Source of the DNA: an uncultured Verrucomicrobiae bacterium
GTDB lineage: Bacteria > Verrucomicrobiota > Verrucomicrobiia > Limisphaerales > Palsa-1400
DNA length: 64,000 nucleotides
Reading direction: 5' to 3'
NCBI GenBank assembly: GCA_963702845.1
Contig: OY969763.1
Coordinates: 800,001-864,000 of the forward strand
Below the pieces are notes generated by a model. That model made no database searches. It worked only from the letters and a program-made list of their open reading frames with translations, and had not been told where the DNA came from. Position 1 is the first letter of the stretch; every line of letters begins with the position of its first letter. Shown here in pieces: positions 1,720-63,562 of the stretch. The translations under genes were made by a program, and so were the position numbers.

Positions 1720-2619
1720 ATGAGTATTCTTGTTGTTGGTTCGACCGCTCTGGATTCCATCCGCACGCCTAACGCGAAAAATCCGCGTTTGCTCGGTGGT
1801 TCTGCCAGTCATGCCGCCGTCGCGGCCAGTTTCTTCGCTCCGGTAAAGTTGGTGGGAATCGTTGGTGAAGATTTCCCGAAGCGCTACGTGTCGCTCTATA
1901 AGAAACACAAGATTGACCTCGAAGGTTTGCAGATCGCCGCCGGCAAAACGTTTCATTGGGCCGGCGAATACGAAGTGAACATGAACAACCGCCGCACGCT
2001 CGAAACTGAGCTCGGCGTTTTCGAAACGTTCACCCCGCGATTGCCCCAGAATTATCGGCAAAGCCAATTCGTGTTGCTCGCCAACATCGCGCCCTCGCTC
2101 CAGCACCATGTCTTGGACCAGATGAGCCGGCCGAAGCTGGTCGTCGCCGACACGATGGATCTATGGCTCAATATTGCGTTGCCCGACTTGTTGAAATTGC
2201 TGCGACGTGTCGATGGCTTCGTTCTCAATGAATCGGAAGCGCAACAGCTCACTCAGGAACACAACCTCGTCAAAGCCGCGCGCAAAATCCACAAGCTCGG
2301 ACCTAAATACGTTATCGTCAAAAAGGGCGAGCATGGCGCGATTCTTTCGGTCAATGGAACGTTGTTTGTCGCGCCGGCTTTTCCGCTGGAGCATGTGGTG
2401 GACCCCACTGGCGCCGGCGACTCGTTCGTCGGAGGCATGATGGGTTATCTCTCGACAGCGCGCGGCAGCGTTGATTCCAATCTGCGCCGCGCGATGATTC
2501 ACGGCAGTGTCGTGGCATCGTTCTGCTGCGAAGGATTCGGATTGATGGCGACCACCCGTGTGACCAAAGACAGGATTCAGAAGCGCGTAGCGGAGTTGGA
2601 AAAGCTGGTTCGATTCTAA
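1720..2619 (+). CDS. PfkB-family carbohydrate kinase
   Basis: MSILVVGS start, GGSA motif, VIVKKGEHGA, DPTGAGDSFVGG signature. Confidence 0.9.
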   Translation: MSILVVGSTALDSIRTPNAKNPRLLGGSASHAAVAASFFAPVKLVGIVGEDFPKRYVSLYKKHKIDLEGLQIAAGKTFHWAGEYEVNMNNRRTLETELGVFETFTPRLPQNYRQSQFVLLANIAPSLQHHVLDQMSRPKLVVADTMDLWLNIALPDLLKLLRRVDGFVLNESEAQQLTQEHNLVKAARKIHKLGPKYVIVKKGEHGAILSVNGTLFVAPAFPLEHVVDPTGAGDSFVGGMMGYLSTARGSVDSNLRRAMIHGSVVASFCCEGFGLMATTRVTKDRIQKRVAELEKLVRF

Positions 2620-2636
2620 CTACTGAACTGAACTGA
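2619..2636 (+). repeat. Stub tract ACT-ACTGA-ACTGA-ACTGA (5' fragments of the 37-bp element)
   Basis: Directly after the pfkB stop; same ACTGA units that precede the full 37-bp copies. Confidence 0.6.
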
Positions 2637-2733
2637 ACAACGCAGCGCAGATGACAGGCGCGCAACTGACTTTGTCTTTATAGGATGTTGGATAACCCGA
2701 AGCGCCAGTTAGCTCGATCTGGCTGGTTCGGCT

Positions 2734-3540
2734 TCACAGTTTCTCCCGATGCGGTTGGTGATCCCGATTCCAGCGGCGTAAGGCGTCGTCGCTGCTGTCT
2801 TCAAAAAGATATTGCAACGTCGGTGATTCAACGTGGCCATCGCAAAACACTACATCGGCTTTGCTTTGGTGGCGTGCAAACGTATTCCCTTCATTGTGAT
2901 GTTTTACATCAGATCAACTCGCCCGATCAATTACTGGGTTGCCGGTAAAGCCATCACCGATCGCAATCATGTCACCTGGATCAACTATTCCCGATTCGCC
3001 GACGGGAGGTGCAAGCGGGCCGTTTGCTGTAGCAGTTGTGCCGCCTAGGCCCAGCGCGCTATATTTTCCGGGGGAACTTAAGCCGACAAAGTTGTAGCCG
3101 TAAGAAAACCATGTCCTCAATGTATTTGGCGCAGGGTCGTTATTATACCAGCGGGCTGAAGGGCAGTTCCATACGCCATTTGTAAAAAAGGGCGTTTTAG
3201 ATTTTGGAACACCCAATTCTTCATAACTTAATGCTTCAGCCCAAGACCTGTAATGCTCCGAATACCCACTCCTTGAAATGTCTACATTTACGTACAAAGG
3301 GTAAAGATGGTTTTCTTGCACAAATCCATGCAAAGCGAGACCTAACTGCCGCACATTGTTGACGCATTGAATTTGCTGCGCTTTGCCTTTTGCTCGAGAG
3401 AACACGGCGAGTAATAGCGCTGCCAAAATCCCAATTATGGCAATAACGACTAAAAGTTCAATGAGCGTGAAGGCGGCACTACTCTGAAATTCTGGCCTTT
3501 GCTTTGTACCGGGTGATTGATGATCGGTAACCTTCGACAT
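2734..3540 (-). pseudogene. Prepilin-type N-terminal cleavage/methylation protein with H-X9-DG motif, interrupted by an in-frame TGA at 2914-2916
   Basis: [22 protein letters not shown] at the N-terminus; the same frame continues past TGA as SDVKHHNEGNTFARHQSKADVVFCDGHVESPTL...WNRDHQPHREKL* (stop 2734-2736). Confidence 0.8.
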
Positions 3541-3712
3541 CTTTATCGCCTTCGCCCTAAAATTGCGCTGTCACCACTTCGATGTCAACGGGCTTCGAAC
3601 ATTCGTCGGCTTGTTCTGGGCCTTTGCCAGTTCACACCCTTCTCGCTCGGGCGATTGTTTATGTGCCGCCGCATGCGGTCAACGGAGCGGGACGAAACCA
3701 GCAGCGTCGCGA

Positions 3713-3754
3713 ACTGAACTGATAGGAAATTGCTTTTTGACGCTGGCGCGGTTA
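3713..3754 (+). repeat. 37-bp element copy 1 (3718-3754) preceded by ACTGA
   Basis: ACTGA + ACTGATAGGAAATTGCTTTTTGACGCTGGCGCGGTTA read directly. Confidence 0.95.
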
Positions 3755-3755
3755 G

Positions 3756-4436
<681 letters not shown>

Positions 4437-4442
4437 ACTCCA

Positions 4443-7172
4443 TCAACGTAAATAAATCGCGCCGGTATTTGTCTTGCCCGTCCCGTCGTTGTTGCCAATA
4501 AAGGCGCCATACGCTGCGTTGCTGCTTTGCAAAACAACACCAACACCATTTCTAAGCCCTTTGATATTTGTCGGCTTGAAGTGGACGTTGAACAAACCCG
4601 TCGCTGTTATGACCGAACCTTGTAACGCGTTTGTCGGAGTATTCGACGTCTTCTGGAGGAGGTTATTGCCGCTGAACTGCGCATTGTAGGTCAATGGCAG
4701 ATTTAAACCCGAACCATCCGTGATCTGTAGCGTGCCCACGGCAACGGTCATCGCTGGCATGCTCGGCGCGTAAACTGAGCCGAAGACAGCAACAGTGTTC
4801 GTAAATCCGCCGAGATAGGTGGTCAAAGCAACGCCGCTCGGGTTCGCCGGTTTGATCCAGGTAAGTTGACCGGCGGGCGCGCCGCTGCTGAAATCGAGCC
4901 AGCCTTCTAACAGTCCCTGATGGTTATACAGGTCTACATACACCGGCCAGCGTCCGTCTTTCGAAATCGGCACCGTTTGGTTGATCGCACCCGACTCGGC
5001 GAGGGCTCCCGACAACGTCACCTTGCCAAGCGCATTGATGGACACCAGACCATAGCCGAAGCCACCCGGGGAACTTGCGGGCGCGTCGGCTGCTGGCGCA
5101 ATCGCCATCGTGTAACGAGCGAGTGCGTGTTGATTGTTTATATTGTAAATTCCGAAGTCGGCTAGCAATGGCGCGGACCATCCTTCGCTCGGACATGACA
5201 CCGTGCCGGTGATTTGTTTCGTTGCACCGGTCCAGTCCAAATACATAGCAACGTTCACAGGTGGTAAAACAACACCGCGTGCGATAGAAACTGTGCTGTT
5301 GCCCAAGGGATCAAACTGACCCTTCAATGGATATTTTGCGCCCGCTAAAAACAATCCGCCCGAATAAGTGCGGTTGAGTTGCACATTCAAATTGAACACG
5401 CCGCCCGCGCTTTGTTCTTTGATTAGCGGTTCACCCATTCCATTCGTCTCATAAAATAATCCGTTGCAGGTTCCCACGACGTCGGCAGAGTTGCCGAAGA
5501 AGAACATCCGGGTTGAAATGAGCGACGCGTCTCCAATATAGTCGAACGCCTGCACACTGAACGTATTCCAACCGGGCTGCAATGTGATCGGCGCGGTCCA
5601 TGTTATAAAGTTTTGTCCCAGTGGGGTCGTAACGCCATGTTGATCGCCGCCATTGAGTGAGTACAAAACCAATCCATCATTGCCCACGTTTGGATTCTGA
5701 TTGATATGGGCCGTCCCGGAAACAGTAATTGCCGGTGAGTTAAATACTTTGTTAGGCAGCGGTCCAACGATCGCGACACTGGGACGGTAGACGCCTGCGG
5801 GAGGACGGTATGGATTAACAACCACACTGTAAGTAGCAGTTCCGGTACAACCATTGGCATCCGTCGCAGTTACGGTGAATAAGTTGGTGCCGAGCGCGCA
5901 AGGAATACCGGTCCATGTCCCGTTACCGTGGAGCGTCAAGCCTGCGGGGATCGAACCGGCAGTCACTGAGAATGTATACGGCGGGACTCCGCTGCTGGCG
6001 CTAAGGTCGGCTGTCGGGTAAACTTCAGCCGTAGCATCACCGCCACCACACACTAAAACACTGCCATCATGAAGGAGCACTTGTCGGTGAAAACTGCGGG
6101 CGAAGGTCATAGGGCCAGTCGGTCGCCAGTTGTTCGATTCAGGATCGTAAAGTTCGGCGGTGTTGCGTTGGAATTGCCAGGCCCCGCCTGAAACCAGGAC
6201 CTTTCCACTGGGCAACAAGGTCGCTTGATGATCGACGTGTGTCCCAACCATCGGTCCAGTTTCTGTCCATGTGTCAGTGGTCGAGTCATAGACTTCCGCT
6301 CCGCCACCAGTGGCTAAAACTTTTCCATTCGGCAACAAGTTCAGTATTTGAAACAAAGCACCGGGCGTAGCGACTTCTGCGCGGGTTCGAGCTATAGGAT
6401 CATACATGTCTGCGAACGTTGGGCTCCATCGGCCACCTGCGAAAAAAACGTTTCCATTAGGCATTAACACCGCGCCGATGTCCCGCTGAGGACGGGTCAA
6501 GGAGCTCCAGAACTGCCACGTACCTGAGGATGGATCGTATACCTGTATGTCGGAAATCGGGAAATAGCCGGAATGTGGCGGCACGCCATTGAACACTTCA
6601 CCCCCTGCCACCATCACTCTTCCGTCTGATAGCAAGGTCGCCGCCGAAAAGGCGCAGCCTTCAATCAATGGATTAGTTGGCGTCCAACTGCCCGTCGCCG
6701 GATCAAAAAGTTCTGCGCTCGCCAGGTAGTGATCGTGCTCGTTGTTAGCGTCTAAATTGAAACCGCCCGCAACGAGGACTTTTCCATCCTGAAGCAATGT
6801 CGCGGTGTGATGAGCTCGTTTGGCAGACATTGGAGCAGTGGAACGCCATGTGCCGGTCGCCGGGTCATAGATCTCTGCACTAGACACGTAACGATCGACA
6901 ACGGGTATCGGCTGAACGTTGGAATATCCGCCCGTGACGAGAACCCTGCCATCGTTCAAGACAGTCGCAGTATGATTCACGCGGGGAATAGTCATTGAGC
7001 CAGTGACATTCCAAGCAGGGGTGGATTCACCCAAATTGTCACTGGGCAAAGTCGCCGGACTGATTGTGATCGTTGGACAGGCGTCCGCGTAAGACAACTC
7101 AGGAGCGCCGAGCGCAATGAGTAAAAGAGCAACCGCTGATCGCGTAGCGGTACCGAGAATGTTAGAATTCAT
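4443..7172 (-). CDS. Secreted Kelch-repeat (galactose-oxidase-like propeller) protein with Ig-like domains
   Basis: Signal peptide; repeated HTATLLxDGxVLVxGG...AExYDPATGxW units; TFSVTAGSIPAG/FTVTATDANG Ig-like segment. Confidence 0.85.
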   Translation of the reverse strand: MNSNILGTATRSAVALLLIALGAPELSYADACPTITISPATLPSDNLGESTPAWNVTGSMTIPRVNHTATVLNDGRVLVTGGYSNVQPIPVVDRYVSSAEIYDPATGTWRSTAPMSAKRAHHTATLLQDGKVLVAGGFNLDANNEHDHYLASAELFDPATGSWTPTNPLIEGCAFSAATLLSDGRVMVAGGEVFNGVPPHSGYFPISDIQVYDPSSGTWQFWSSLTRPQRDIGAVLMPNGNVFFAGGRWSPTFADMYDPIARTRAEVATPGALFQILNLLPNGKVLATGGGAEVYDSTTDTWTETGPMVGTHVDHQATLLPSGKVLVSGGAWQFQRNTAELYDPESNNWRPTGPMTFARSFHRQVLLHDGSVLVCGGGDATAEVYPTADLSASSGVPPYTFSVTAGSIPAGLTLHGNGTWTGIPCALGTNLFTVTATDANGCTGTATYSVVVNPYRPPAGVYRPSVAIVGPLPNKVFNSPAITVSGTAHINQNPNVGNDGLVLYSLNGGDQHGVTTPLGQNFITWTAPITLQPGWNTFSVQAFDYIGDASLISTRMFFFGNSADVVGTCNGLFYETNGMGEPLIKEQSAGGVFNLNVQLNRTYSGGLFLAGAKYPLKGQFDPLGNSTVSIARGVVLPPVNVAMYLDWTGATKQITGTVSCPSEGWSAPLLADFGIYNINNQHALARYTMAIAPAADAPASSPGGFGYGLVSINALGKVTLSGALAESGAINQTVPISKDGRWPVYVDLYNHQGLLEGWLDFSSGAPAGQLTWIKPANPSGVALTTYLGGFTNTVAVFGSVYAPSMPAMTVAVGTLQITDGSGLNLPLTYNAQFSGNNLLQKTSNTPTNALQGSVITATGLFNVHFKPTNIKGLRNGVGVVLQSSNAAYGAFIGNNDGTGKTNTGAIYLR

Positions 7173-7347
7173 AAGGAAAGCGATAAACGTACCGAAGCGT
7201 TGATTTGCATGACCCGTCCGACAAGATTCCCAACCCGTTCGTCATACGGCCGAGAGTCCACCTGCTGAAAAGTAATGTCAAGCATATGCGAGTGTGCAAT
7301 GTGGAAAAACAGGTGGGTCCGAAAAGATCGTAGGATATCGGCCGAAA

Positions 7348-7560
7348 CTATTCTGAAACCATGAGCCGGTAACCGATTCCAGCTTCGGTCATGAACATTT
7401 TTGGATGCGTTGGGTCCTCTTCCAGTTTGTCCCGCAGATGACCGAGGTAGACTCGCAAGTAATGCGTTTGCGTGACGTAATTGGGCCCCCACACCTCGCG
7501 CAGAATCTGCTGATGCGTCAACACCTTGCCGGCGTGCTGCACAAATAGTCGCAATAGCGA
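7348..7560 (-). pseudogene. C-terminal winged-helix fragment of a KdpE-like response regulator, truncated at the 37-bp element
   Basis: SLLRLFVQHAGKVLTHQQILREVWGPNY..YLRVYLGHLRDKLEEDPTHPK..TEAGIGYRL; the receiver domain is missing and the frame abuts 7561. Confidence 0.85.
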
Positions 7561-7612
7561 ACTGATACTGATAGGACTGATAGGAAATTGCTTTTTGACG
7601 CTGGCGCGGTTA
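7561..7612 (+). repeat. 37-bp element copy 2 (7576-7612) preceded by ACTGAT and ACTGATAGG
   Basis: Read directly from the sequence. Confidence 0.95.
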
Positions 7613-7617
7613 AGGCG

Positions 7618-8037
7618 TCACTTAGAATCCTCCAGTCGCCTCGCCCGCAATGTCTCGTCATCATGGTTGACGCTGGCTACCAACAGAAAGGGGCTGCGAC
7701 GACCTACAACACGGAATTCGAAACCAAAATTCTGGCCCGTGAATTTTACAAGAAATGCAGAATTGGAAGGAGAAAGCTGCCATGTGCCGGTGCCGGAAAC
7801 TTCTCCGATCGCACCGGAAGACGGCGACACGGGGAAATGCGCGACCATGAAGGTGTGGTCACCATTTAATCGGAGGTATTCCGTCGGCGGGCGAGTGTGG
7901 TGTACTGCGGGCACCCAAGTCCCAGCTAACGTTGATATGTCTGGCTGTTTGTCGGGATCAGCGTAGAGCAGGTGTCTCAAGACGGCGATCGCGAGCAGCG
8001 TAGCGCCAAAGATCAGAATCCTAACGTGCATTTTCAT
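7618..8037 (-). CDS. Hypothetical exported or membrane-anchored protein
   Basis: N-terminal hydrophobic segment; LAGTW...LNGDHTF...GTGTWQL beta-rich pattern. Confidence 0.6.
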   Translation of the reverse strand: MKMHVRILIFGATLLAIAVLRHLLYADPDKQPDISTLAGTWVPAVHHTRPPTEYLRLNGDHTFMVAHFPVSPSSGAIGEVSGTGTWQLSPSNSAFLVKFTGQNFGFEFRVVGRRSPFLLVASVNHDDETLRARRLEDSK

Positions 8038-8327
8038 AATGGGTTCTATTTGATCGGCGCCTAACAGTTAATACACGACAACTGTTCGCAGATTTTTAAT
8101 AGGCGAACAAGGGTTTTTGAGGTTCAAGATTCAGATTTCCGACCTTGGAATCACCGAGAGCGGACGGCTGCGGCGTAGGAGCGTTGCGACAGCATCGCGA
8201 CGGAGCCGCTGCCGGACGCGGACGTCGTAAGCGTGCAGCACGGAAAAATGAGCAAAGTTCGCGTGGTTTCGCATAGGTTCGCTTTGCTTCTGTAGATGTG
8301 AATGCTGCGGTTTGCGAAACTGCGTGC

Positions 8328-8410
8328 GTGCCAGTCAATACGACGCATCCTGATTACGCCGCGAACCAAGCTGCATGGCTTCGCGCTCGCGATGTTTTGG
8401 CTGGCGAAGA
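8328..8410 (+). pseudogene. N-terminal stub resembling DUF4055 (portal-like) proteins, cut by the 37-bp element
   Basis: GTG start: VPVNTTHPDYAANQAAWLRARDVLAGEE then runs into ACTGA; resemblance recalled from family N-termini, not searched. Confidence 0.5.
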
Positions 8411-8458
8411 ACTGAACTGATACTGATAGGAAATTGCTTTTTGACGCTGGCGCGGTTA
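8411..8458 (+). repeat. 37-bp element copy 3 (8422-8458) preceded by ACTGA and ACTGAT
   Basis: Read directly from the sequence. Confidence 0.95.
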
Positions 8459-8674
8459 ATTCGAAAGTTTCCCCGCTTTCCTGACGCGAAGCGGACTGAA
8501 GTCCGCGCTCCTTTGGTTCGAACGTTTTAAGCGCTGATCGGATGCGTAAATCTCTGAGCCGGACGTGCGCCTGATGCTCATTGCAAAAAACAGTGGTGGC
8601 TCGAGGGTTTCCTCGTTGGTGAGTTTGCCGCCCGGCAAGGGGCGACCAGACCACGCACGAAAGGATAACGGGCC

Positions 8675-9973
8675 ATGAATAGTAAACACACCCTCTTCCC
8701 GCTGGCCATCGGACTGGCGCTGAGTGTCACGATGCCTTCCATATTTGCTCAAGCCACCGCCCCTCCCACATCCACCGGGACGGCTTCCGTGGCGCCAGCG
8801 GAACCACCATCGGCAGGACATAAGCTTAGCACCGCCGAGCTTGATAAATTGGTTGCACCGATCGCGCTTTATCCTGACCCGCTCGTCGCAACGATCCTGC
8901 CGGCGTCCGCATACCCGCTGGAAATTGTCGATGCGGCGCGCTTTGTCAAAGATACGAACAATATCGCCAAGCTGGATGAACAACCTTGGGATAAAAACGT
9001 CAAAGAAGTCGCCCGCATTCCTAAAGTCCTCGACCAGTTGAACGAGAATATCAACTGGACCACCGCCCTGGGCGACGCGTTCGTCAAAGAACCGAAACAG
9101 ATCATGGAGGCGATCCAAACGATGCGCGACAAGGCAAAACAAACGGGCGCTCTCAAATCGACACCGCAGCAAACGGTCAACGTCGTCCAGCAGGCCGGCA
9201 CACAAGTCATCCAGATCGAACCGGCACAGCCGAACGTTGTGTATGTTCCGCAATACAATCCAACCGTAGTCTTCGCGGGCATGCCGGTTGCGTATCCCGG
9301 TTATTATTATCCACCCGCGGCGTATTATCCGGGAGCCGCTGCTGCGCTCTCGTTCGGTGCTGGCGTGGCAGTGGGGGCATGGGCCGGCAACAGCTGCAAC
9401 TGGCACGGCGGCACTGTGAATGTGAACAACTACAATAATTACGCTCACTACAACGGTGCCAATATTAACAATGCAAATATCAACAATGCTCGGATCAACA
9501 ACGCAAACATCAACTCGGCCAAGATCAATTCCGCCAACACTTCAACATGGCATGCGGACCAAAGCCGTCTGAACGCCTCCGGGGCAAGCGTGGCTACTGC
9601 CCAAAGCCGCGCAGACAGTGGTTGGGGCTCGAGCGCAAGCAAGGCTAATTGGTCGCAACAGGTCGACAACGCCAGCAAGCAATTCAGTGCGGAAAATAAA
9701 ACCTTGGAATCGCACCAGGGCGAGGCAGGACAATTTGGCAGTCACGGTTTTTCGGAAGCTTCCGGCGCCGATCGTTTTTCAGGAGCGCAATCCGCTGATC
9801 GATTCAGCGGCGCAGACAGGAGCGCCTTCGACAGTTCGCACGGTTCTTTCGCTGATCGCGACGCAAGCTTTCGAGGCGACATGAGTCGCGGTGGTTTCGG
9901 CGGCGGATTCCACGGAGGCGGCGGCTTTGGCGGGTTCCACGGAGGAGGCGGATTTCATGGAGGCCGCCGTTAA
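8675..9973 (+). CDS. DUF3300 domain protein
   Basis: LDKLVAPIALYPDPLVATILPASAYPLEIVDAAR and WTTALGDAF motifs; low-complexity Asn- and Gly-rich tail. Confidence 0.88.
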   Translation: MNSKHTLFPLAIGLALSVTMPSIFAQATAPPTSTGTASVAPAEPPSAGHKLSTAELDKLVAPIALYPDPLVATILPASAYPLEIVDAARFVKDTNNIAKLDEQPWDKNVKEVARIPKVLDQLNENINWTTALGDAFVKEPKQIMEAIQTMRDKAKQTGALKSTPQQTVNVVQQAGTQVIQIEPAQPNVVYVPQYNPTVVFAGMPVAYPGYYYPPAAYYPGAAAALSFGAGVAVGAWAGNSCNWHGGTVNVNNYNNYAHYNGANINNANINNARINNANINSAKINSANTSTWHADQSRLNASGASVATAQSRADSGWGSSASKANWSQQVDNASKQFSAENKTLESHQGEAGQFGSHGFSEASGADRFSGAQSADRFSGADRSAFDSSHGSFADRDASFRGDMSRGGFGGGFHGGGGFGGFHGGGGFHGGRR

Positions 9974-9988
9974 ACCTAAACCACGGAT

Positions 9989-10933
9989 ATGTCTATGAAC
10001 TCTATTTCTCGCTCTTTGCTTAAACAGGTATTGATCTTAGCCGCCGTGCTGTGCATCACGCCGATGATGTGCCTGAAGGCCGCAACCGCCGGTAAGACAT
10101 TCGCTTCGCCGGAAGATGCAGTGAAGGCATTTTCAAACGCAGTAAACAATAATGACACCAACGCTCTGATAGTCATCTTTGGTTCGGACTTCGACCAAAT
10201 TCAGTCTCCAAACCCGGCCAGGAGACAGGAAGATATGGCAACCATCGCCAAACGCCTGAAGGAAGGCACGCAACTCGAACCTTACGCCAGCAACCGGGTT
10301 GTGGTCGACATCGGCAAAGACCGTTGGCCGTTTGCCGTCCCCATCGTTCAGACAAACGGTTCGTGGCAATTCGACACCGACGCCGGCAAGGACGAACTCC
10401 AAAGCCGCCGCGTTGGCGGCAATGAACGGGACGCGCTTAGAAGTGTCCGGGCTTACGCAGTGGCCCAGCGCGTATACGCGAGCAAAGATCGAAACGGCGA
10501 TCAGGTGCCGGAATACGCCCAGAAATTCATCAGTTCGCCCGGCCAACAAGACGGACTCTATTGGTCAGCGGACGCCGGCGGTGAAACCAGTCCACTCGGT
10601 CCACTTTACGCCCAGGCCCAAAGCGCAGCGCAGGCGACCGCAAATGGAAACGGCTCGACCGGGGCACAACCGTTCTACGGTTACTATTTCAAGATTCTCG
10701 ATCGCCAGGGCAAGAACGCTCAAGGAGGCGCTAAAGATTACGTGAACAATGGCCACATGACCGATGGTTTCGCCCTCGTTGCCTGGCCTGCGGATTACGG
10801 CAAATCAGGCGTCATGACCTTCATCATCAATCAACAGGGCAAGGTTTATCAAAAGGACCTTGGGAAAAACACGGCGGACATCGCCCAAAAGATGCAGGCC
10901 TACGATCCGGATCGAAGTTGGAACGCGGACTGA
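9989..10933 (+). CDS. DUF2950 domain protein
   Basis: FASPEDAV, WPFAVPIV, RRVGGNE, EYAQKFISSPGQQDGLYW, GFALVAWPADYGKSGVMTF; the stop TGA lies inside an ACTGA stub. Confidence 0.88.
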   Translation: MSMNSISRSLLKQVLILAAVLCITPMMCLKAATAGKTFASPEDAVKAFSNAVNNNDTNALIVIFGSDFDQIQSPNPARRQEDMATIAKRLKEGTQLEPYASNRVVVDIGKDRWPFAVPIVQTNGSWQFDTDAGKDELQSRRVGGNERDALRSVRAYAVAQRVYASKDRNGDQVPEYAQKFISSPGQQDGLYWSADAGGETSPLGPLYAQAQSAAQATANGNGSTGAQPFYGYYFKILDRQGKNAQGGAKDYVNNGHMTDGFALVAWPADYGKSGVMTFIINQQGKVYQKDLGKNTADIAQKMQAYDPDRSWNAD

Positions 10934-10996
10934 TACTGATAACTGATAGGAAATCGCTTACTGATAGGAAATTGCTTTTTGACGCTGGCGCGGTTA
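10929..10996 (+). repeat. 37-bp element copy 4 (10960-10996) preceded by ACTGAT, ACTGATA and ACTGATAGGAAATCGCTT
   Basis: Read directly from the sequence. Confidence 0.95.
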
Positions 10997-11268
10997 AGGG
11001 AGAATTGCTTTTCACAATGTCTCATTTTTTGAGGATGCTGCGCCCGTAGAAGCGTTCAGTCAAGTGACCTTGCGCATTCCGGTGCATCGTCTTCAGTCCT
11101 GGCAGTCCCGGCGGATGCCTTAGAATGCGCTAAATCCAAGGCCCGATGGCGCTCTCAACACTTGGCATTTACGACCGGCGCGCTATTATATTGTCACAAG
11201 CGCCGGCGACATTCTCTACCTTTAAGTCGGCGCGATGGTTGAGGCGAAACGAAAGGAAACCAATTGCG

Positions 11269-12039
11269 ATGAAAAAATTGCTGGTTCTGTTTGTGTTGTG
11301 GGCGGGACTTCCGGCCCATGTTGTAGCGGATCTCGTAACATACCGTTTTGCCGGCGTTGTGATTGGGCAAAACAATACTGGCGTCTTCACCGGCGGTCAC
11401 CCTTACACGCTCACGATTGTAATTAACACTGCCGCCCACGGCAATTCTACCGTGCCGGAAAGAACTGATTACACCAACGCGATCACATCCTCGTATTTCA
11501 ATTACGATTCAGGCAACTACGTCGCACAAGGAACGAATGGAGGCACAGTGAGTGTGGAAAACGATGATCGTGGTCTTTACGATCACTTTCTAATACTCGG
11601 ACTTCCTGGGTTTTCTTCACTCGCGGGGCAGCCACTTACTTCTTGCGAAATTCACCTCATCGACACCAATCACATTGTATTTTCGAACAATGACCTGCCG
11701 CAGATTCTGCCAGTTGACGCGTTTCAGCAGCGCTATTTTAACATTGGCTGGGGAATTGATTGGGACACCCGTGGACTGGACCTAAGCATTGACTCAATTA
11801 CAGTTATTCAGCGTCGACCAGCCATCACAAGTTGGACTCGGACGATCGATTCACTTGCGTTCAATATAGAGTTCGCCGGCCAATCCTGCACAAACTTGTT
11901 GGAACGATCGTTTGCAATCGGTAGTTCTGCACAATGGGAGGTTGTCAGTTCCTGTGTTGCATCTGGCGGAAACACGAATTGGACCGTGCCACTGCAGATG
12001 GACCAACCCTCAGTGTTTTATCGTGTGAAAGGCCAATGA
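11269..12039 (+). CDS. Hypothetical secreted protein with C-terminal FYRV-type tail
   Basis: AGGA upstream of ATG 11269, signal peptide MKKLLVLFVLWAGLPAHVVA, ends SVFYRVKGQ. Confidence 0.7.
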   Translation: MKKLLVLFVLWAGLPAHVVADLVTYRFAGVVIGQNNTGVFTGGHPYTLTIVINTAAHGNSTVPERTDYTNAITSSYFNYDSGNYVAQGTNGGTVSVENDDRGLYDHFLILGLPGFSSLAGQPLTSCEIHLIDTNHIVFSNNDLPQILPVDAFQQRYFNIGWGIDWDTRGLDLSIDSITVIQRRPAITSWTRTIDSLAFNIEFAGQSCTNLLERSFAIGSSAQWEVVSSCVASGGNTNWTVPLQMDQPSVFYRVKGQ

Positions 12040-12064
12040 ACTGTTCCCGCTGATAAGTCATGCT

Positions 12065-12101
12065 TAACCGCGCCAGCGTTAAAAAGCAATTTCCTATCAG
12101 T
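12065..12101 (-). repeat. 37-bp element copy 5, inverted, one mismatch at 12080
   Basis: TAACCGCGCCAGCGTTAAAAAGCAATTTCCTATCAGT. Confidence 0.95.
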
Positions 12102-12790
12102 TGGTTTTGTGAACAAGTTTGCCTGCCAATGCCGACAAGCTACTCGTCGAAATATGTGTCAACGCTTTCTTGCTGTCGAAATTTGCAGCGGGATGCAGCG
12201 GCACGTATACCAGACGCAACTCCCCGCAACTGTTTGACCGACCGTCAGAAATTTTTTCAAAACCCTGTGATACGTTCGCCACATGAAAACACGAATTGCA
12301 CAGTTTGAACCGACACTGGTTTGCGACCACCCACAGCGCAACCGAAATCGTGTCAAAACTTTTTTGCATAGAAAAATGGCGCGTTGCGGCGTGGTAAGGC
12401 GTGTCAGTGCATGCAGGTGCATGATGGGAAACGGGCTTCGGAAAAATTCAGAAAAACATGTGATAGAAATGTGCGCATGAGCGAGAGCCATCAGTTTATC
12501 AATGAGCCGGCGAAGCCGGTGCCGCATCCGTTGTCGAATAAGCAGGCTGCCGATGTTCAACGCAAACGTGCCGCGCAGAAGAGAGTGCCAGTCGGCCAGT
12601 GTGAGCCATCTTCAGAAATCTGCCCAAATGTCGCTTTGTTTCGCTTTGTGTCGCGTTGCTTCGCTAGACGCCTGGCGACGAAACTCTCACCATATATGCA
12701 AATGACAGAGACATCGCGTTCGCCCAACTACCTGTCGCGCCGAAGTCAGACGCAGGCGGATCAACCCTCAACCCTCAACATGTTTTAACC

Positions 12791-13162
12791 ATGCATTCTA
12801 CAGACACAAAATCAAAGTTCCTCGAGTTCCGCGGCAAAGGCTGGAGCCTTGCCCGCATCGCAAAACAAATCGATGTCAGCGTCCGCACCTTGGCCGACTG
12901 GAACCAGCAACACCGCCAGGAAATACGCACGCTCCGCGCCATCGATATCGAAGCTCTTCAGGAAAAGTTTCTCGCCACCCACGAGCAGGAGCTCAGTTCT
13001 CTCACCGCCCAACTCCAGCGCATCGAGCAAGCGATCGGCGACAGCAAACTCCAATTCGTCGAAACTAAAGACTTATTCCGACTGGCTGCCGTGACCCGCG
13101 CCGAAATCCGCAAAGTCATCATACCCACGGAGCCGGATGATAAATCGCATGCACAAAACTAA
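12791..13162 (+). CDS. Small helix-turn-helix protein (terminase-small-subunit or transposase-type HTH)
   Basis: FLEFRGKGWSLARIAKQIDVSVRTLADW HTH followed by a coiled-coil-like segment. Confidence 0.75.
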   Translation: MHSTDTKSKFLEFRGKGWSLARIAKQIDVSVRTLADWNQQHRQEIRTLRAIDIEALQEKFLATHEQELSSLTAQLQRIEQAIGDSKLQFVETKDLFRLAAVTRAEIRKVIIPTEPDDKSHAQN

Positions 13163-13830
13163 AATTGCATCGTTTCTGCATCATTTTTGCATCATTTCCC
13201 AAATGGAGGCCGTTACAAAATCCAGCGGCGGTCACGTTTGGTCACGTTCGGTCATGTTCAGTCATCTTTGGTCACGTCTACCATCGGCTCGCCTCCTTCC
13301 TGTCGGGCCAAAGCGCCCCGCGAAGGCAGACGCGCCCTTCGAGCGAAATGCTTTACCGGTCAAAATTCGGTAAAGAAACGGTAAAGAAACGGTAAAGTTT
13401 TACCCCTTGTAAAATGAACACGGTTCAAACGAAAAAACGTACAGAAAATGTACAGAAAGGTTCAGTTTTCGGTCCACGCCTGAAAAACCGGGAAAAAGGT
13501 AACGGGAGGTAATCAGAAGTAATCGGAGGTAATCTCATTATGCAATCTCTGTCACGTTTGGTCATCTTTGGTCACGTCTGGTCATCGGAGGTAATCCCAA
13601 TGCACCACCCGTCGTCGCCATTCATGCAAAACTGCACCATTTCTGCCTCGTTTCTGCCTCATCTTTTTTGCGCACCGGATGTTCCGGTCGGTCAAATTCG
13701 GTAAAGAAACGGTAAAGAAACGTAAAGTTTTTTAAATGTGCCGCCGTGCCGTCGGACGTTCCGGTCCTGAATTGATCAGATCTCGGCAAAAAACAAAATC
13801 GACTGACTTTCAGTGACCTTTACGGAAATT
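13160..13830. repeat. Non-coding cluster of different short direct repeats with 10-11 bp period
   Basis: TGCATC x3, GGTCAC-like x5, CGGTAAAGAAA x3 (twice), GTACAGAAA x2, GGTAAT-like x4, CTGC(A/C) x3. Confidence 0.8.
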
Positions 13831-13980
13831 GTTTGCTGCCTGTCACCAAATGTAGCCTGTTCGGCGTTCCGGAGAATTCAATAAAATTGTAGCTTCCCTT
13901 TTGGCGAATCGATACAATAAGCTACTTTTCACAACGAAAAATAAAAACTCCCGGCATGCGGTCGGGAATGCAATATTAAT

Positions 13981-15444
13981 ATGGCACTGAGTCCAAAACT
14001 GGGGCCCGAACAAGCGGCAGCCAACATGGCTGACATTGCCCCCCGCTTTACACCACAAGAAGCTGTTATCGAAGCGAATCGTTGTCTGTTTTGTTTTGAT
14101 GCGCCCTGCATCCAGGCATGCCCGACCGGCATCGATATCCCGAGCTTCATTCAAAAAATTGCCAACGGTAACCTGACGGGTTCCGCGCGAACAATTTTAA
14201 GCGCCAACATTCTCGGCGCCAGTTGCGCGCGGGTTTGCCCCACGTCCGTCCTTTGCGAAGGCGCGTGCGTCGTGCTCGATCGCGAAGGCAAAGCTGTCCA
14301 GATCGGACGATTGCAGCGTTACTCGACGGATCACGTTTACGACAACAAAATCCAGGTCCTCAAGCCTGCCGCGAAAAAGTCTGGCAAAAAAGTTGCCGTG
14401 CTCGGCGGTGGTCCTGCCGGCCTTGGTTGCGCGGCGGAGTTGGCTCAACTCGGCCACGACGTCACTGTTTTCGAAAAGAAACCGCAAGCCGGGGGTCTCA
14501 ACACCTACGGCATCGCTTATTACAAGATGCCGCCGCAGGTGAGCCTTGAAGAAGTCGAGCTGGTCAAGAGCCTCGGAGTTCAATTCAAATTCGGCGTCGA
14601 AATCGGCAAAGACATTCAGGTCGCCGACCTCGAAAAGCAATTCGACGCGATTTTCGTAGGCCTCGGCCTTGGCCGCGGTCATCAGATGAATATTCCCGGC
14701 GAGAATTTGCCGGAAGTTATTCAGGCCCTCGATTTCATCGAAAAACTTCACACCACGCCGTTGCACAAAGTGCCGGTCGGCGCGCGTGTCGCTGTTATCG
14801 GCGGCGGCAACACCGCCATCGACGCGGTGACCCAGGCCAAGCGCCTCGGTGCCGAAAAAGCGATGCTCATTTATCGCCGCACTCAGGCTGAAATGTCGGC
14901 TTATGATTTCGAGCAGGACCTCGCCAAAACTGATGGCGCTGAATTCGTTTTCAATGCTGCACCCATCGAAGTTATCGCCGATTGCAACGGGCACGTGGCC
15001 GGCCTGAAACTCGCCCGCACGCAGTTGGTTAACGGCAAAGCCGAAATTATTCCCGGCCAGGAATGGGTCGAGCCCGTCGACATGGTTATCAAAGCGATTG
15101 GCGAACCTAAACAAGTCGAACTGCTCAAGCGCCTCTTTCCGAAAATCGAACTCGATAAGCGCGGCGCGATTGTTTACGACCGCGCAACCGGCGCAACGAA
15201 TCTCCCGAAAGTTTTTGCTGGTGGCGATTGCGCCAACGGTGGACGCGAAGTTGTTAATGCTGTCGGCGAAGGCAAGAAAGCCGCGCGCGGCATGCACGCG
15301 ATGTTCGTAAACCAGAAGGTTGTCGGCCCGGTTCAGCAATCTCGACTGGGTGTGAAGTCAGCGCCGGTGGGTTCTGGTTTGGAAAATCCGATCCGTGTGC
15401 CCGAACTGGAAAAAGAATACGCGAAGCAAGCGGCCGCACACTAA
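13981..15444 (+). CDS. preT: NAD(P)-dependent dihydropyrimidine dehydrogenase subunit (GltD-like)
   Basis: EANRCLFCFDAPCIQACP, GGGPAG, GGGNTAIDA, FAGGD; directly upstream of preA. Confidence 0.88.
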   Translation: MALSPKLGPEQAAANMADIAPRFTPQEAVIEANRCLFCFDAPCIQACPTGIDIPSFIQKIANGNLTGSARTILSANILGASCARVCPTSVLCEGACVVLDREGKAVQIGRLQRYSTDHVYDNKIQVLKPAAKKSGKKVAVLGGGPAGLGCAAELAQLGHDVTVFEKKPQAGGLNTYGIAYYKMPPQVSLEEVELVKSLGVQFKFGVEIGKDIQVADLEKQFDAIFVGLGLGRGHQMNIPGENLPEVIQALDFIEKLHTTPLHKVPVGARVAVIGGGNTAIDAVTQAKRLGAEKAMLIYRRTQAEMSAYDFEQDLAKTDGAEFVFNAAPIEVIADCNGHVAGLKLARTQLVNGKAEIIPGQEWVEPVDMVIKAIGEPKQVELLKRLFPKIELDKRGAIVYDRATGATNLPKVFAGGDCANGGREVVNAVGEGKKAARGMHAMFVNQKVVGPVQQSRLGVKSAPVGSGLENPIRVPELEKEYAKQAAAH

Positions 15445-31146: not shown

Positions 31147-31220
31147 TGGCTGTCCGACATGGATTCGAACCATGACTAAAGCCTCCAAAGGGCTCTGTGC
31201 TACCATTACACCATCGGACA
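31147..31220 (-). tRNA. tRNA-Gln(TTG)
   Basis: TGTCCGA acceptor stem, TGGTGTAATGGTAGCA D arm, CT-TTG-GA loop, GGTTCGAATCC, encoded CCA; downstream of ispE. Confidence 0.96.
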
Positions 31221-47536: not shown

Positions 47537-47835
47537 GGACGCCCTTTCAGGGCTTAAATTCGTTTGCGGCGTTTTAAACCCAGGGCGTTGCCCTGGGCTG
47601 GGTTGAGCCGCGCCGTTGGCGCTGGAAGGATTTCGTTCCGCAGTGTGAGTGTTGGGGCGGCCGTTGGCGCTTTAGGCTTTTCTATGGGGCTGGAGGTTTG
47701 AAGGGGGGGCCGTAGCCCCAAAGGGGCGATTCAATGCAGCCCAGGGCAACGCCCTGGGAAACGGCATCGCACCAAATTATAAGCCCTGAAAGGGCATCCT
47801 AATCCCAAACGTATCGTTCATCAAACGCAACGTCG
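47537..47835. repeat. REP-like hairpin cluster plus tnpA 3' stub
   Basis: Near-identical to 45585-45665 and 44960-45110. Confidence 0.85.
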
Positions 47836-61599: not shown

Positions 61600-63510
61600 G
61601 TTTACAAATTCCAAAAATCCCTCGCGTATCGAAACAGGTCAGTAAGCGGCTTGGAAAAATTCCTGAAAAATGTGTGCTAAAAACGTTCGCGTGAATGCGA
61701 CTAGGAAACCCTGTCAAACTTTTTCCGGCTGAAAAACGGCGCGTATATGCACGAAAACTGTACCCAAATGTCGGTCTATGCGTGTCGCGGGTCTTCGCTG
61801 GAAAAAGTTTTCAAAAACGTGTGATAAAACTTTGCGCATGAGCAAGAGCCATCAGGTCCTCGCGGGGTAGCCGAAGACGATGCCCGCACACGCTGTCGAG
61901 GAGGAAGGCTGCGGATTTCAACGCAGCCGGTGCGGAGCGGAAGTGGATGCCAATCGGACAATGCGATCCATTTCAAATACGTGCGCGACTTCGCGTGGCT
62001 TCGCTGGACGCAATTCGCACGGCAACCGATATTGAACCGCAATTGAAAGGAAAACTATGAAAGATCAGGAAACACAACTGCGCTTCATCTTCATGCGCTC
62101 CCAGGGCGCCACCTTTTTTCCCTTCGTTACCTTCTGTATACAGAACTACGGCTTACGGTTACGGGTTGTGAATAACTTTTGGAGGGTGTCACCCCATAAC
62201 TGTCCAACCCCCTCCTGTAATTTTGACTGCATGAAACCTACAAATAGACAGTTTCGAAAGGGGCGGGCGGCGGTCCCCCAATCCGAATTCCGCAATCAAT
62301 ATGCCTTAGCGTGCTTTGCCCCCTTCGCTCCCGTCGCGCGAAATCCGTTAACGGGCATGGACCCCATAAATTGAATAATGATGAAAACGAAAAATTGTAG
62401 CAGAAAAGTTCAGTTTTGCGGGGTTCCGTCCCGATAAAATCTGAAACAGGTAACGGGAGGTAATCAGAAGTAATCGGAGGTAATCTCATTATGCCGCAAA
62501 TCCGCCAACGAGCAAAGCGAGCCCCGACGGTCGTCGGTGGTTCGAAATCCGCGATCGAAGAAAATTGCACCATTTCTGCACTATTTTTGCCTCATCCAAC
62601 CGTTGCGGGTTCGTCGCGTCCGTTTCGAGACCCTCACTTTGGATCGCAAAAATCCCTTTTCGATCACTTTAAGTCACGTTTGGTCACGTTTGGTCACGTC
62701 CATTGCGAGACATCAAAAAATTTATTTTCATGTGACCTTTAGTGCCTTTATGTGACGTCTTGTGACCTTGACGACTTTATGTGACGAAGAATCTGACAAT
62801 TTAAGGGCTTCCCAGGAGGTGTGCCCCAAACACCGAAACAACCGCCGTGAATCCGCGGGTTGGTATCGCATCGCGATAGCAAGAGGTGTCGCCGAGGGGG
62901 GTGGGGGAGGTCTGTGTTCGCGCGCCGGATAGCATCCCCGATCAGTGGGTGCGTCAGTCCTGTTGTTCCGTCTTTCCGGCCTGTCGTTAACCGCGCCAAA
63001 AGATGTAAAACAGGTAACGGGAGGTAATCAAAAGTAATCGCGGCCTGAATGAAGGGGATGATGTGCAGGTGCCTGCTGACTCCTCTTCGAAACTCGGACC
63101 TGACGGGTGCCTGCCGTCAGCCTGACGTTTGAGAACCACTCCAACCCATTGACCATCAACATTCCTGACGGCCTGACGGCTCTACCCCCCTGGAAGGGGT
63201 ACCTACCCCTTTGCCTCGAGCTGGCCAGACATGTGCGCTGCTAACCAAGCCAAAACAATTTATTTCCGGTGCCGTTTGGTGCCGCCCGAGCCGGTCTCTC
63301 AACCCTCAACCATTTCCCCGCGCGTCCCTGCGCGACGCGACATCGAAAAAATCTCTTTTCGGTGCGTTTTGGTGCGGTTTCCGGAAAATCCGCAATTCTC
63401 AATCGGCAATCCGCAATTGATGAGATATGTGTTTCATCTGTGTTCAATCCGTGGCTAAAAACCCGCAAGCAGTAAAGATCGGTAAAGAAACGGTAAACTT
63501 TTTGTGCATC
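61600..63510. other. Degenerate paralog of the 12.2-13.8 kb region (HTH stub at 62057 plus phased repeats)
   Basis: Shared GCGCATGAGC(G/A)AGAGCCATCAG, AGGTAACGGGAGGTAATCAGAAGTAATCGGAGGTAATCTCATTATGC, GTCACGTTTG and CGGTAAAGAAACGGTAAA; MKDQETQLRFIFMRSQG resembles MHSTDTKSKFLEFRGKG. Confidence 0.75.
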
Positions 63511-63562
63511 ATTTACCTTTTTGTGGCCAACCCGTAATCCGCAATTCGAAATCCGCAATCAG

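Follow-up and report, generated by a model that had tools for sequence, protein, structure and literature searches.

A 37-base sequence, R, behaves like the working end of an uncatalogued mobile-DNA system and separates kilobase-scale pieces of DNA from related species. The window analysed here is a 64,000-nucleotide stretch of the genome of an uncultured soil bacterium of the Verrucomicrobiae, and coordinates are window positions unless another genome or locus is named. R occurs five times in the window, against 0 expected (100 shuffles): four exact copies lie on the forward strand at 3718, 7576, 8422 and 10960 (R1 to R4) and one inverted copy with a single mismatch lies at 12065 (R5), as an earlier note on this DNA had read them. 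The start-to-start spacings are 3858, 846 and 2538 bp. R4 and R5 form a 39-nt inverted pair, 97% identical, enclosing 1.1 kb, and the window's other copies are all direct or solo. Genome-wide there are 24 R-like sites, against 0 with a reversed control, and seven exact copies at three loci.

The DNA between R copies measures 0.8-3.8 kb per block, and each block holds one to three genes, on both strands, plus gene fragments (Pfam). The earlier note had called the blocks unrelated, kilobase-scale and arbitrary in their end points, and this holds: no repeat family connects them to one another. All ORFs translated from the blocks start with a hydrophobic, signal-like N-terminus, as read from the translation. 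Block 1 carries a copy of the dispersed repeat 'fam4' (2636-2680, forward strand; many copies elsewhere in the genome) and a prepilin-type gene (2914-3540, reverse strand; Pfam N_methyl/DUF1559) that matches N_methyl and the first ~35 DUF1559 positions only and is thus truncated. Block 2 opens, at the inner edge of R1, with the C-terminal half of a GH51 arabinofuranosidase gene (3756-4436, forward strand). Alpha-L-AF_C is the only domain of its ORF (3804-4436; Pfam), and alignment to the full-length GH51 genes of two congeners begins at ~3756. An intact gene for a 909-aa Kelch/He_PIG protein with a signal-like N-terminus follows (4443-7172, reverse strand), and then the C-terminal DNA-binding fragment of an OmpR/KdpE-type response regulator (7348-7560, reverse strand), broken at 7560, whose ORF (7348-7554) matches OmpR-type Trans_reg_C only (profile 15-77 of 77). 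Block 3 comprises a 139-aa ORF with a signal-like N-terminus (7618-8037, reverse strand), the dispersed repeat 'fam3' (8058-8146, forward strand) and a phage portal gene stub (8149-8410, forward strand), broken at 8410. The stub is 84% identical to G000 141776-142038 and corresponds to a DUF4055 portal gene from its upstream region to about codon 30. All three breaks, at 3756, 7560 and 8410, had been placed there by the earlier note. Block 4 contains DUF3300 and DUF2950 genes (8675-10933, forward strand), and block 5, enclosed by R4 and R5, encodes a secreted-type protein with no family match (11269-12039, forward strand).

Partial copies of R, which we call prefixes, pile up directly upstream of every forward copy in the window. 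R1 (3718-3754) is preceded by ACTGA (from 3713), R2 (7576-7612) by ACTGAT and ACTGATAGG (from 7561), R3 (8422-8458) by ACTGA and ACTGAT (from 8411), and R4 (10960-10996) by ACTGAT, ACTGATA and the 18-nt ACTGATAGGAAATCGCTT (from 10929). The inverted R5 (12065-12101, reverse strand) has its outer tip pointing rightward. Observed prefix lengths are 3-10 and 18 nt, never longer. The 18-nt prefix has a base typical of another R variant, which argues that its block derived from a different array. The left flank of R1 has ATGTGCCG..GGTCAACGG..GTCGCGA in common with two G002 copies. A prefix abuts position 1 of R at 5 of 15 near-exact G000 sites, plus one 'CTGAT' case, and in 3-4 of 10 copies of other assemblies, where chance would give a 5-nt prefix at about one site in 1024. 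The DUF2950 gene (9989-10933) covers nearly the whole profile (2-272 of 274) and lacks its last few codons. Its TGA stop, which the earlier note assigned to the repeat, falls in the first prefix, ACTGAT, preceding R4 and outside the 37-mer. Orphan prefixes mark island limits in the window and on the left side of the nuo island. The window orphan (2619-2639, forward strand; read directly) is a stutter of ACT, three ACTGA and AC that has no full 37-mer. It lies directly after the pfkB stop codon and forms the left limit of the island, and the pfkB homology of G001 stops at 2619. The prefix stacks, this orphan and the run-on unit of the 10960 copy are absent from the earlier note.

R has razor-sharp edges on both its outer and inner sides. 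At the inner edge, GGTTA|A, R meets arbitrary DNA in a precise joint, and at least 17 copies give way to unrelated sequence at position 37-39, in two cases within a gene. Full R is found in three genera, two besides that of the host, and exact R also occurs in contigs from a relative whose flanking genes are ~84% identical. The two bases ahead of TGATAGG vary in the R of other genera, so the core of R starts with TG.

R-bearing islands are insertions. In both comparisons available, the corresponding sites in relatives (G000 2768118-2768132 and G002 nuoI-nuoH) are empty and R-free; neither has a target duplication, and one has lost ~13 nt of target. No junction is common to the window and G001 or G002, in which the same genes are uninterrupted. 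A fixed integration site, the core of the earlier proposal, is contradicted by the dispersal of R over 24 sites and three genera and by these R-free empty sites. The GH51 fragment is about as far from the host's own gene (80.7% identity) as from those of the congeners G001 (82.6%) and G002 (77.9%), and these three are 77.6-83.2% identical among themselves. Judged by these identities, the fragment looks like a copy from a fourth congener rather than a duplicate of the genome's own gene. For the other blocks the genome contains no donor at ≥95% identity, their relatives there being just 68-84% identical.

We tentatively propose, at somewhat less than even probability, that a trans-acting, non-autonomous element has R as its recognition end, and that staggered breakage, fill-in and end joining add R-led segments to one another head-to-tail. 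This is closer to the tiny mobile end sequence that the earlier note gave as its alternative than to its fixed-site system. R would be a self-contained, putative protein-recognition sequence of 37-39 bp and not a fixed chromosomal target, and its mobile system would be lineage-specific, non-autonomous and at home in soil Verrucomicrobiota. The resident 'canonical' R would be the 10960 copy, which continues into a conserved unit and adjoins a small HTH/iteron element. Growth would proceed to its left by head-to-tail addition of R-led segments, probably genome pieces of other species in the same genus with arbitrary break points. The proposed enzyme would be provided in trans and would cut at the outer edge of R with a stagger of at most ~18 nt. 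Fill-in and Ku-dependent end joining would then either reseal the site or join another R-led segment, and every round would leave one prefix, building the stacks of ACTGA, ACTGAT, ACTGATAGG and the 18-mer. Ku is present in 3/3 genomes of the genus, and its role at these joints is conjectural.

Accretion accounts for the joints at the outer edge more readily than for the inner edge, which would be a second precise joint to arbitrary DNA. Because at least 17 copies switch there to unrelated DNA at position 37-39, a second precise step is required. The native gene beside the mid-gene inner joints resembles the 3' end of R (GH51, 11/16; PPK2, 8/12 with one gap), and a site-specific recombinase acting at pseudo-sites could have made these joints instead. 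The earlier note had proposed listing enzyme genes beside the 37-mer: no transposase lies within 6 kb of R at nine external loci or near the genome's own copies, and no recombinase, integrase or integrase remnant lies in or beside the R arrays examined. One Y1_Tnp gene is located 4.6 kb from a degenerate R copy.

It is unlikely that R is instead a target duplicated at each capture, like a CRISPR repeat or casposon target. In such a process, an integrase would attach an arbitrary linear fragment by its two ends to the two edges of R, one on each strand, and filling of the gaps would give R-fragment-R. This one step would yield the identical direct copies, the two sharp edges and the arbitrary block ends on both sides, and to that extent the duplication at capture posited in the earlier note retains explanatory value. 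Four identical direct copies per array are also expected from duplication of R in situ, a 1-nt deletion common to two 36-nt copies at 315 kb fits local duplication, and the position of the canonical unit at one array end, here and at 315 kb, suggests polarity. The length of R is typical of CRISPR repeats (23-50 bp), and foreign, arbitrary DNA lies between its four exact direct copies. However, a search for Cas1 (PF01867) found nothing in the genome, although its control matched in 7/14 genomes; blocks of 0.8-3.8 kb contrast with spacers of tens of bp; and R is dispersed, carried on insertions into sites that are R-free in relatives. Duplication also sits poorly with the mixture of R variants inside some arrays (L048) and with the foreign-variant base of the 18-nt prefix, and it predicts neither the prefixes nor the inverted 12065 copy.

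Distinctly unlikely is a reading in which R forms the identity segment within an attachment site and a trans-acting tyrosine or serine recombinase serially integrates R-bearing circles there, rare events between R and pseudo-sites creating new cassettes with broken genes. Such integration would flank cargo with direct repeats and leave no target duplication, and the genome does encode two non-Xer tyrosine recombinases and two large serine recombinases. Its four tyrosine recombinases lie outside the arrays, however, and no recombinase was found in or beside any array examined. Islands start at or beside the stop codons of upstream genes, and native joint sequence has a patchy likeness to the adjoining part of R, yet the empty sites have no R. 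In tycheposons, successive integrations push older elements inward, and, as in CIME/ICE accretion, short direct repeats bound the remnants (10.1101/2020.12.28.424599). R differs in lying outside any tRNA or conserved gene, in having R-free empty sites and in the lack of an integrase in its arrays. It also has no inverted binding arms and no hairpin: single-stranded folds of R and of its 71-101-nt contexts, on both strands, gave z of -0.9 to +1.0, the sole stem being one of 7-8 bp at the 3718 copy. Stacked prefixes are not a product of precise recombination, and no plausible circle would have the two ends of a block next to each other.

We consider it decidedly unlikely that R is conserved for regulation, for instance as the promoter or operator of genes for exported proteins, and serves only as a passive identity island or fragile site at which homologous and illegitimate recombination joins DNA imported from relatives. 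R is near-identical between genomes otherwise ~80% identical, proteins with a signal-like N-terminus occur in all blocks, and genes of other genera often begin 10-50 nt downstream of R. The motif GGAAAT-N16-CGCGG within R, which by eye we take to resemble an ECF-type promoter, would also count in its favour. Set against this, 0/5 copies score as a sigma-70-type promoter, and many copies face a convergent gene or gene fragment. A stretch of 37 bp is a short anchor, and homology-driven exchange is not expected to give sharp edges or prefixes.

It is quite improbable that an ordinary DDE insertion sequence or MITE has R as its terminal inverted repeat and that the array arose from one-ended transposition, insertion beside its own ends and adjacent deletions. 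Points in its favour are the inverted R4/R5 pair, the TG at the start of the R core and the degenerate, inverted R-like sequence that closes the island of L047. None of the R pairs has a transposase within or close to it, though, and target duplication is absent at R4/R5 as it is in the 2/2 empty-site comparisons. Three rve transposases are present in the genome, but the one rve insertion sequence examined has unrelated 37-nt terminal repeats; no Tn3-type DDE transposase was found in the genome. Adjacent deletions would leave the unrelated DNA at the inner edge of at least 17 copies unexplained.

A chimeric assembly, with reads joined via the short repeat, is very improbable: although the genome is of metagenome type, has genes elsewhere that look frameshifted (AcrB, in three pieces) and has only one junction (10842-10996) covered by an exact short-read contig (155 nt, which may stem from the source sample), with no short-read piece spanning the whole of R and both flanks, R recurs with like prefixes and different flanks elsewhere (four further genome records, five metagenome contigs), and a 37-bp repeat would not lead a long-read assembly astray.

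The accretion reading has partial likenesses among known systems. The earlier note judged that integrons, CRISPR and IS-adjacent deletions do not fit fully, and each of the three models, the IS model in its ordinary form, is contradicted by a defining test. Integrons and CALINs resemble R arrays in that heterogeneous cargo is split by a recurring site on which an enzyme could act in trans. The integron core consensus is GTTRRRY, which the right edge of R (GTTA plus a purine) loosely resembles. Unlike integron cassettes, R has no attC hairpin (z ~0), and its blocks are multi-gene, on both strands and with fragments, rather than single, mostly whole ORFs. The best genome match to the integron integrase profile TIGR02249 reached 85.9 bits against a cut-off of 265, and the matches are Xer-like.

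With ISCR/IS91 elements R has in common a sharp conserved end abutting variable, often truncated DNA, and dispenses likewise with inverted repeats. According to PMC6218425, ISCR common regions have a conserved end followed within 0 to ~1.2 kb by variable, often truncated genes, and ISCR1 also provides outward promoters. R differs in being just 37 bp, sharp on both sides and unaccompanied by an HUH Y2 transposase gene; the Y2 profile (PF04986) had no match in the genome, and the control was silent in every genome too. We know of no prefix stacks in ISCR.

Cut-and-paste transposons leave donor footprints, partial copies of a terminus that remain after staggered cleavage and end joining. In T-DNA, direct border repeats delimit kilobase transfer units, and filler DNA is found. 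Both differ from R in being eukaryotic or plant-directed, and no relaxase or transposase is tied to R. IS200/IS605-TnpB and REP/RAYT systems are set apart by the lack of a hairpin in R and by a search of three genomes of the genus that found no TnpB zinc-ribbon domain, and retroelements by the lack of any RVT_1 (PF00078) match in the genome (control matched in 3/14 genomes).

The 10960 copy continues into a conserved unit of ~140-280 bp (10997-11140, forward strand) that is also present at 6007074, 6015461, 315010, L048 and L065. Beyond R5 lies a multi-copy element of ~1.2 kb with phased 10- and 11-bp repeats (12345-13543, forward strand), which recurs near R arrays and contains a gene for a 123-aa HTH/coiled-coil protein (12791-13162, forward strand). 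This protein was found in 4 of the 31 genomes searched and is limited to the three genera with full R. R-like sites lie 0.4-0.8 kb upstream of three of the seven HTH genes, and in L047 and L048 the HTH element and R copies are on one contig.

The 37-bp repeat (R) occurs five times in the window, as the earlier note had reported: exact copies lie on the forward strand at 3718, 7576, 8422 and 10960, and an inverted copy with one mismatch lies at 12065, where none is expected by chance. The blocks between copies are mutually unrelated, in that no repeats are common to them. Each forward copy is preceded by stacked partial copies of R's own start (prefixes), a feature missing from that first record: ACTGA before 3718; ACTGAT and ACTGATAGG before 7576; ACTGA and ACTGAT before 8422; and ACTGAT, ACTGATA and ACTGATAGGAAATCGCTT before 10960. 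The 18-nt prefix before 10960 contains a C typical of a different R variant. An orphan stack (ACT, then ACTGA three times) lies at 2619-2639, directly after the pfkB stop codon and with no R behind it. The copy at 10960 is the sole forward copy to run on into conserved sequence (the canonical unit), which also follows R at 6007074, 6015461 and 315010 in the window's own genome (G000) and is found in part in two other assemblies. Together with the inverted copy at 12065 it forms a 39-nt, 97% inverted pair enclosing one secreted-type gene.

Pfam scans and comparison with relatives bear out the broken genes first noticed at the repeat edges. The GH51 half-gene is an ORF encoding the C-terminal domain only, and its homology to the full-length GH51 genes of two congeners starts at ~3756. 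The KdpE fragment at 7348-7554 on the reverse strand encodes the DNA-binding end alone of an OmpR/KdpE-type regulator, with the break at 7560. The match of 8149-8410 to the portal gene of a prophage elsewhere in G000 covers the sequence upstream of that gene and its first codons, and stops at 8410. The DUF2950 gene, which had been thought to take its stop from the repeat, is nearly complete and lacks its last codons; its stop codon lies in an R prefix and not in R itself. Signal-like N-termini are common to all translated block ORFs.

None of the blocks reaches 95% identity to any other part of G000; their best matches there are 68-84% identical. An intact GH51 gene of the kind proposed as a donor does exist at 635.6-637.8 kb of G000, but it is a separate resident gene and not the missing half, and was rejected as the reciprocal of the fragment. 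Over ~650 nt the fragment is 80.7% identical to this resident copy, 82.6% to that of G001 and 77.9% to that of G002 (both congeners), and these three are 77.6-83.2% identical among themselves. Since the fragment's identities are similar to those between species, it looks like a copy from a fourth congeneric species. G001 and G002 share none of the junctions of the array in the window; their contigs break in the pfkB-preT interval and differ there in synteny.

G000, a single contig of 6.03 Mb, contains 11 copies of R at up to three mismatches (seven exact) in three loci. A Hamming scan allowing length variants found 24 R-like sites at up to ten mismatches, against none for reversed controls. 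At up to three mismatches R is present in three of 61 related genomes searched, all of one genus, and it was also found in four public genome records (Verrucomicrobiota MAGs) and five metagenome contigs. Of 31 family genomes, 10 contain the 18-mer forming its first half, and the full site including TGACGCTGGCGCGGT was seen in two further genera (G003 and G007). Full R was seen in three of ten genera. Synteny across genera around the G003 and G007 copies is too poor to locate empty sites. Accessory genes, among them AbiGi, MazF, Fic and AbiEii-like ones, adjoin these copies, and a conserved hydrolase gene of G003 takes its stop codon from the TGA at the tip of R. Two scans of viral contigs gave no match to R. 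Among public runs only two, both from soil, had small shares (0.08 and 0.07); searched as contigs, they gave no joint across R, a result with no bearing on habitat or absence. At 315010-315908 of G000 (L034:9045-9945), one methyltransferase gene lies between two direct 36-nt R copies, forming a one-gene cassette inside a polysaccharide-synthesis gene cluster.

Comparison with empty sites indicates that R travels on insertions. A relative's metagenome contig (L047) carries a 4.6-kb island at a site that is uninterrupted and free of R in G000 (2768118-2768132). The island consists, in order, of a prefix, R, a 2-kb block, R and a 2.4-kb block that includes the HTH/iteron element described below; the sequence flanking it is not duplicated, and the target has lost ~13 nt. 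In G000 itself, a 13.8-kb island (6002308-6016132; L009:1308-15132) splits the nuo operon between nuoI and nuoH, genes that overlap by four bases in G002, and comparison with the G002 arrangement reveals no duplication at the insertion. Its cargo comprises small and large terminase genes, a collagen-like tail-fibre gene, two R units, response regulators and a rhodanese gene, with an orphan GCGAACTGAT near its left limit. The G000 nuoH has acquired a new start codon.

At its outer edge (position 1), R behaves as if joined precisely but to no specific partner: the adjoining sequence is in some cases arbitrary DNA and in others the opening 3-18 nt of another R. Uninterrupted microhomology across the joints amounts to 0-1 nt, and patches of similarity occur nearby. 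At the inner edge (the 3' end of R), native GH51 ACGCGCGCGCGCCAAG matches R ACGCTGGCGCGGTTAG at 11 of 16 positions, and a second mid-gene joint, in a PPK2 gene (L050), matches at 8 of 12 with one gap; near the outer edge, CTG-containing stretches lie close to the break in the native sequence in three to four cases. The base after GGTTA is A in about 17 of 22 R copies. Truncated copies consist of a suffix only (L043 and L065) or a 25-nt prefix (L076), and one locus in G002 has a version that lacks 31-33 nt between two AATTGCTTTT direct repeats.

We tentatively propose that R serves a non-autonomous element as its recognition end, for an enzyme acting in trans; this is the likeliest mechanism, though somewhat short of probable. 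The array's anatomy, its recurrence, insertion without duplication, the foreign origin of the blocks and the presence of Ku are observed, and the enzyme, the chemistry and the order of events are inferred. The pattern at the outer edge fits a staggered break, in which one strand would be cut at the tip of R and its partner as far as ~18 nt within the repeat. Filling in and rejoining the ends would then leave one prefix per cycle, and such prefixes are similar to the donor-site footprints of transposons. End joining is available, since the three genomes of the genus all have Ku. A segment cut from one array would bring its old neighbour's prefix into the next, and the 18-nt prefix of a foreign variant suggests such transfer between arrays. 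R-led segments with arbitrary far ends would thus accrete head-to-tail beside a canonical R. The inner edge would need a second precise step, which is the weak point of the model; precision at that edge is the strong point of the main rival, in which an integrase duplicates R in situ.

A six-frame Pfam search of G000 gave no match to RVT_1, Tn3-type DDE or Cas1 and none above cut-off to IntI, and the TnpB zinc ribbon is absent from the three genus genomes searched. Y2_Tnp and PF10136 also had no match in G000, in searches whose controls were silent. The genome does encode three rve, two large serine, four tyrosine, one IS110-type and one Y1 recombinase or transposase, none of them in or beside any R array, and all-against-all BLASTP of the ORFs from 14 R-bearing stretches found no enzyme-like protein in common. 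In G002, a 697-aa PF10136 'site-specific recombinase' gene (L044:5831-7924; E 2.7e-205) ends 20 nt before R. It was set aside as a neighbour because it was not found in G000, where the control was silent. R and its contexts fold no better than shuffles (z -0.9 to +1.0); attC, REP and IS200/605-type ends are therefore excluded, and a terminator-like hairpin is likewise unsupported. A known RNA or tRNA-derived att site was rejected, with Rfam and tRNA matches absent from 2400-14000. None of the five R copies scores in a sigma-70 promoter scan, and many R copies face convergent genes. The recurrence of R with different flanks in independent records led us to reject an adapter or assembly artefact as the main reading; the array is a real and unusual feature.

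The one rve insertion sequence examined has termini unrelated to R. This 1281-bp element with 37-nt terminal repeats lies at 1945546-1946826 of G000. Short pieces from its left end (6015733-6015780 and 1152226-1152602) adjoin an R unit, through a common GGTTTCG, and flank an R-like site.

To the right of the array, at 12345-13543, is a multi-copy element of ~1.2 kb, with further pieces near 61800-63560. It contains a gene for a 123-aa HTH/coiled-coil protein together with phased 10-bp (GTCACGTTTG-like) and 11-bp (CGGTAAAGAAA) repeats. The protein shows weak likeness to small terminases and transposase HTH domains. Its relatives are mostly on metagenome contigs of ~1 kb, which is the signature of a repeated element. 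It is encoded in four of 31 family genomes, representing exactly the three genera with full R. G000 has seven copies of the gene, three with R-like sites 0.4-0.8 kb upstream, and the element or its parts occur near R at 315-319 kb and 3.125-3.128 Mb and share a contig with R in L047 and L048. This is an association and not proof that the protein acts on R; R and the GAAATTGCTTTT half-sites are putative binding targets. R was rejected as a fixed terminus of the element, as distances and orientations vary among copies.

Two G000 loci, at 2551785 (L104:6785-7612) and 3261116 (L105:7116-7943), have diverged HTH homologues, each followed by a gene for a 275-aa arginine-rich protein without a family match, the two copies being 88% identical; at one of them the HTH gene is preceded by an R-like site 448 nt upstream. 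A segment of ~95 nt lies towards the outer end of the HTH/iteron element (window 62796-62889; L047:725-820; G000 876629, 2353505, 3895563, 4344018 and 1542824). It is 88-96% identical across copies and between species and has no Rfam match at gathering score.

The R array departs in defining features from integrons, CRISPR arrays, DDE insertion sequences and att-site accretion, and is rated as a variant form of mobile-end-driven island building. The closest systems in working are ISCR/IS91, whose conserved ends, according to PMC6218425, adjoin variable and often truncated DNA, as R does. R arrays also resemble tandem accretion at attachment sites, as described in 10.1101/2020.12.28.424599; the comparison with the literature covered these two systems. 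A minority reading, considered unlikely, is a DNA-capture system of a new kind, in which a trans-acting enzyme would recognise the hairpin-less R, attach kilobase pieces of congeneric, and hence foreign, DNA with arbitrary ends to both edges and build polarised arrays on the HTH/iteron element as a platform. Such a system would parallel CRISPR adaptation or cassette capture on a kilobase scale, without Cas1 or IntI.

If R belongs to an active joining system, it would give soil Verrucomicrobiota a route to gain and retain kilobase pieces of their relatives' DNA without a catalogued integrase or transposase. The captured cargo here is mostly genes for exported proteins, and the neighbours in other genera are abortive-infection, toxin and other accessory genes. 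The prefix stacks would be an internal trace of DNA broken and rejoined many times, and the chemistry is therefore open to testing. For annotation, gene halves in R islands should be treated as imports from relatives and not as decayed resident genes.

Two further repeat families are dispersed in G000, normally ~10 nt apart: fam4, present in the window at 2636-2680, and fam3, which has two small hairpins and is present at 8058-8146. They separate many small ORFs, including those for Imm50, Imm32 and Imm53 immunity proteins, in G000 arrays at 1716001-1734000 (L040), 4284001-4292000 (L041) and 136042-141777 (L039); in one case the array separates the large terminase gene of a prophage from its portal gene. 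These arrays look like a separate cassette-array system. At ~3129757-3132845 of G000 (L035:13757-16845), an AcrB-type transporter gene is present as three consecutive ORFs, reflecting either decay or assembly indel errors. Elsewhere in the window are a tRNA-Gln gene at 31147-31220 and, at 47714-47758, an Acido-Lenti-1 small RNA match that scores 38.3 bits where the cut-off is 37.
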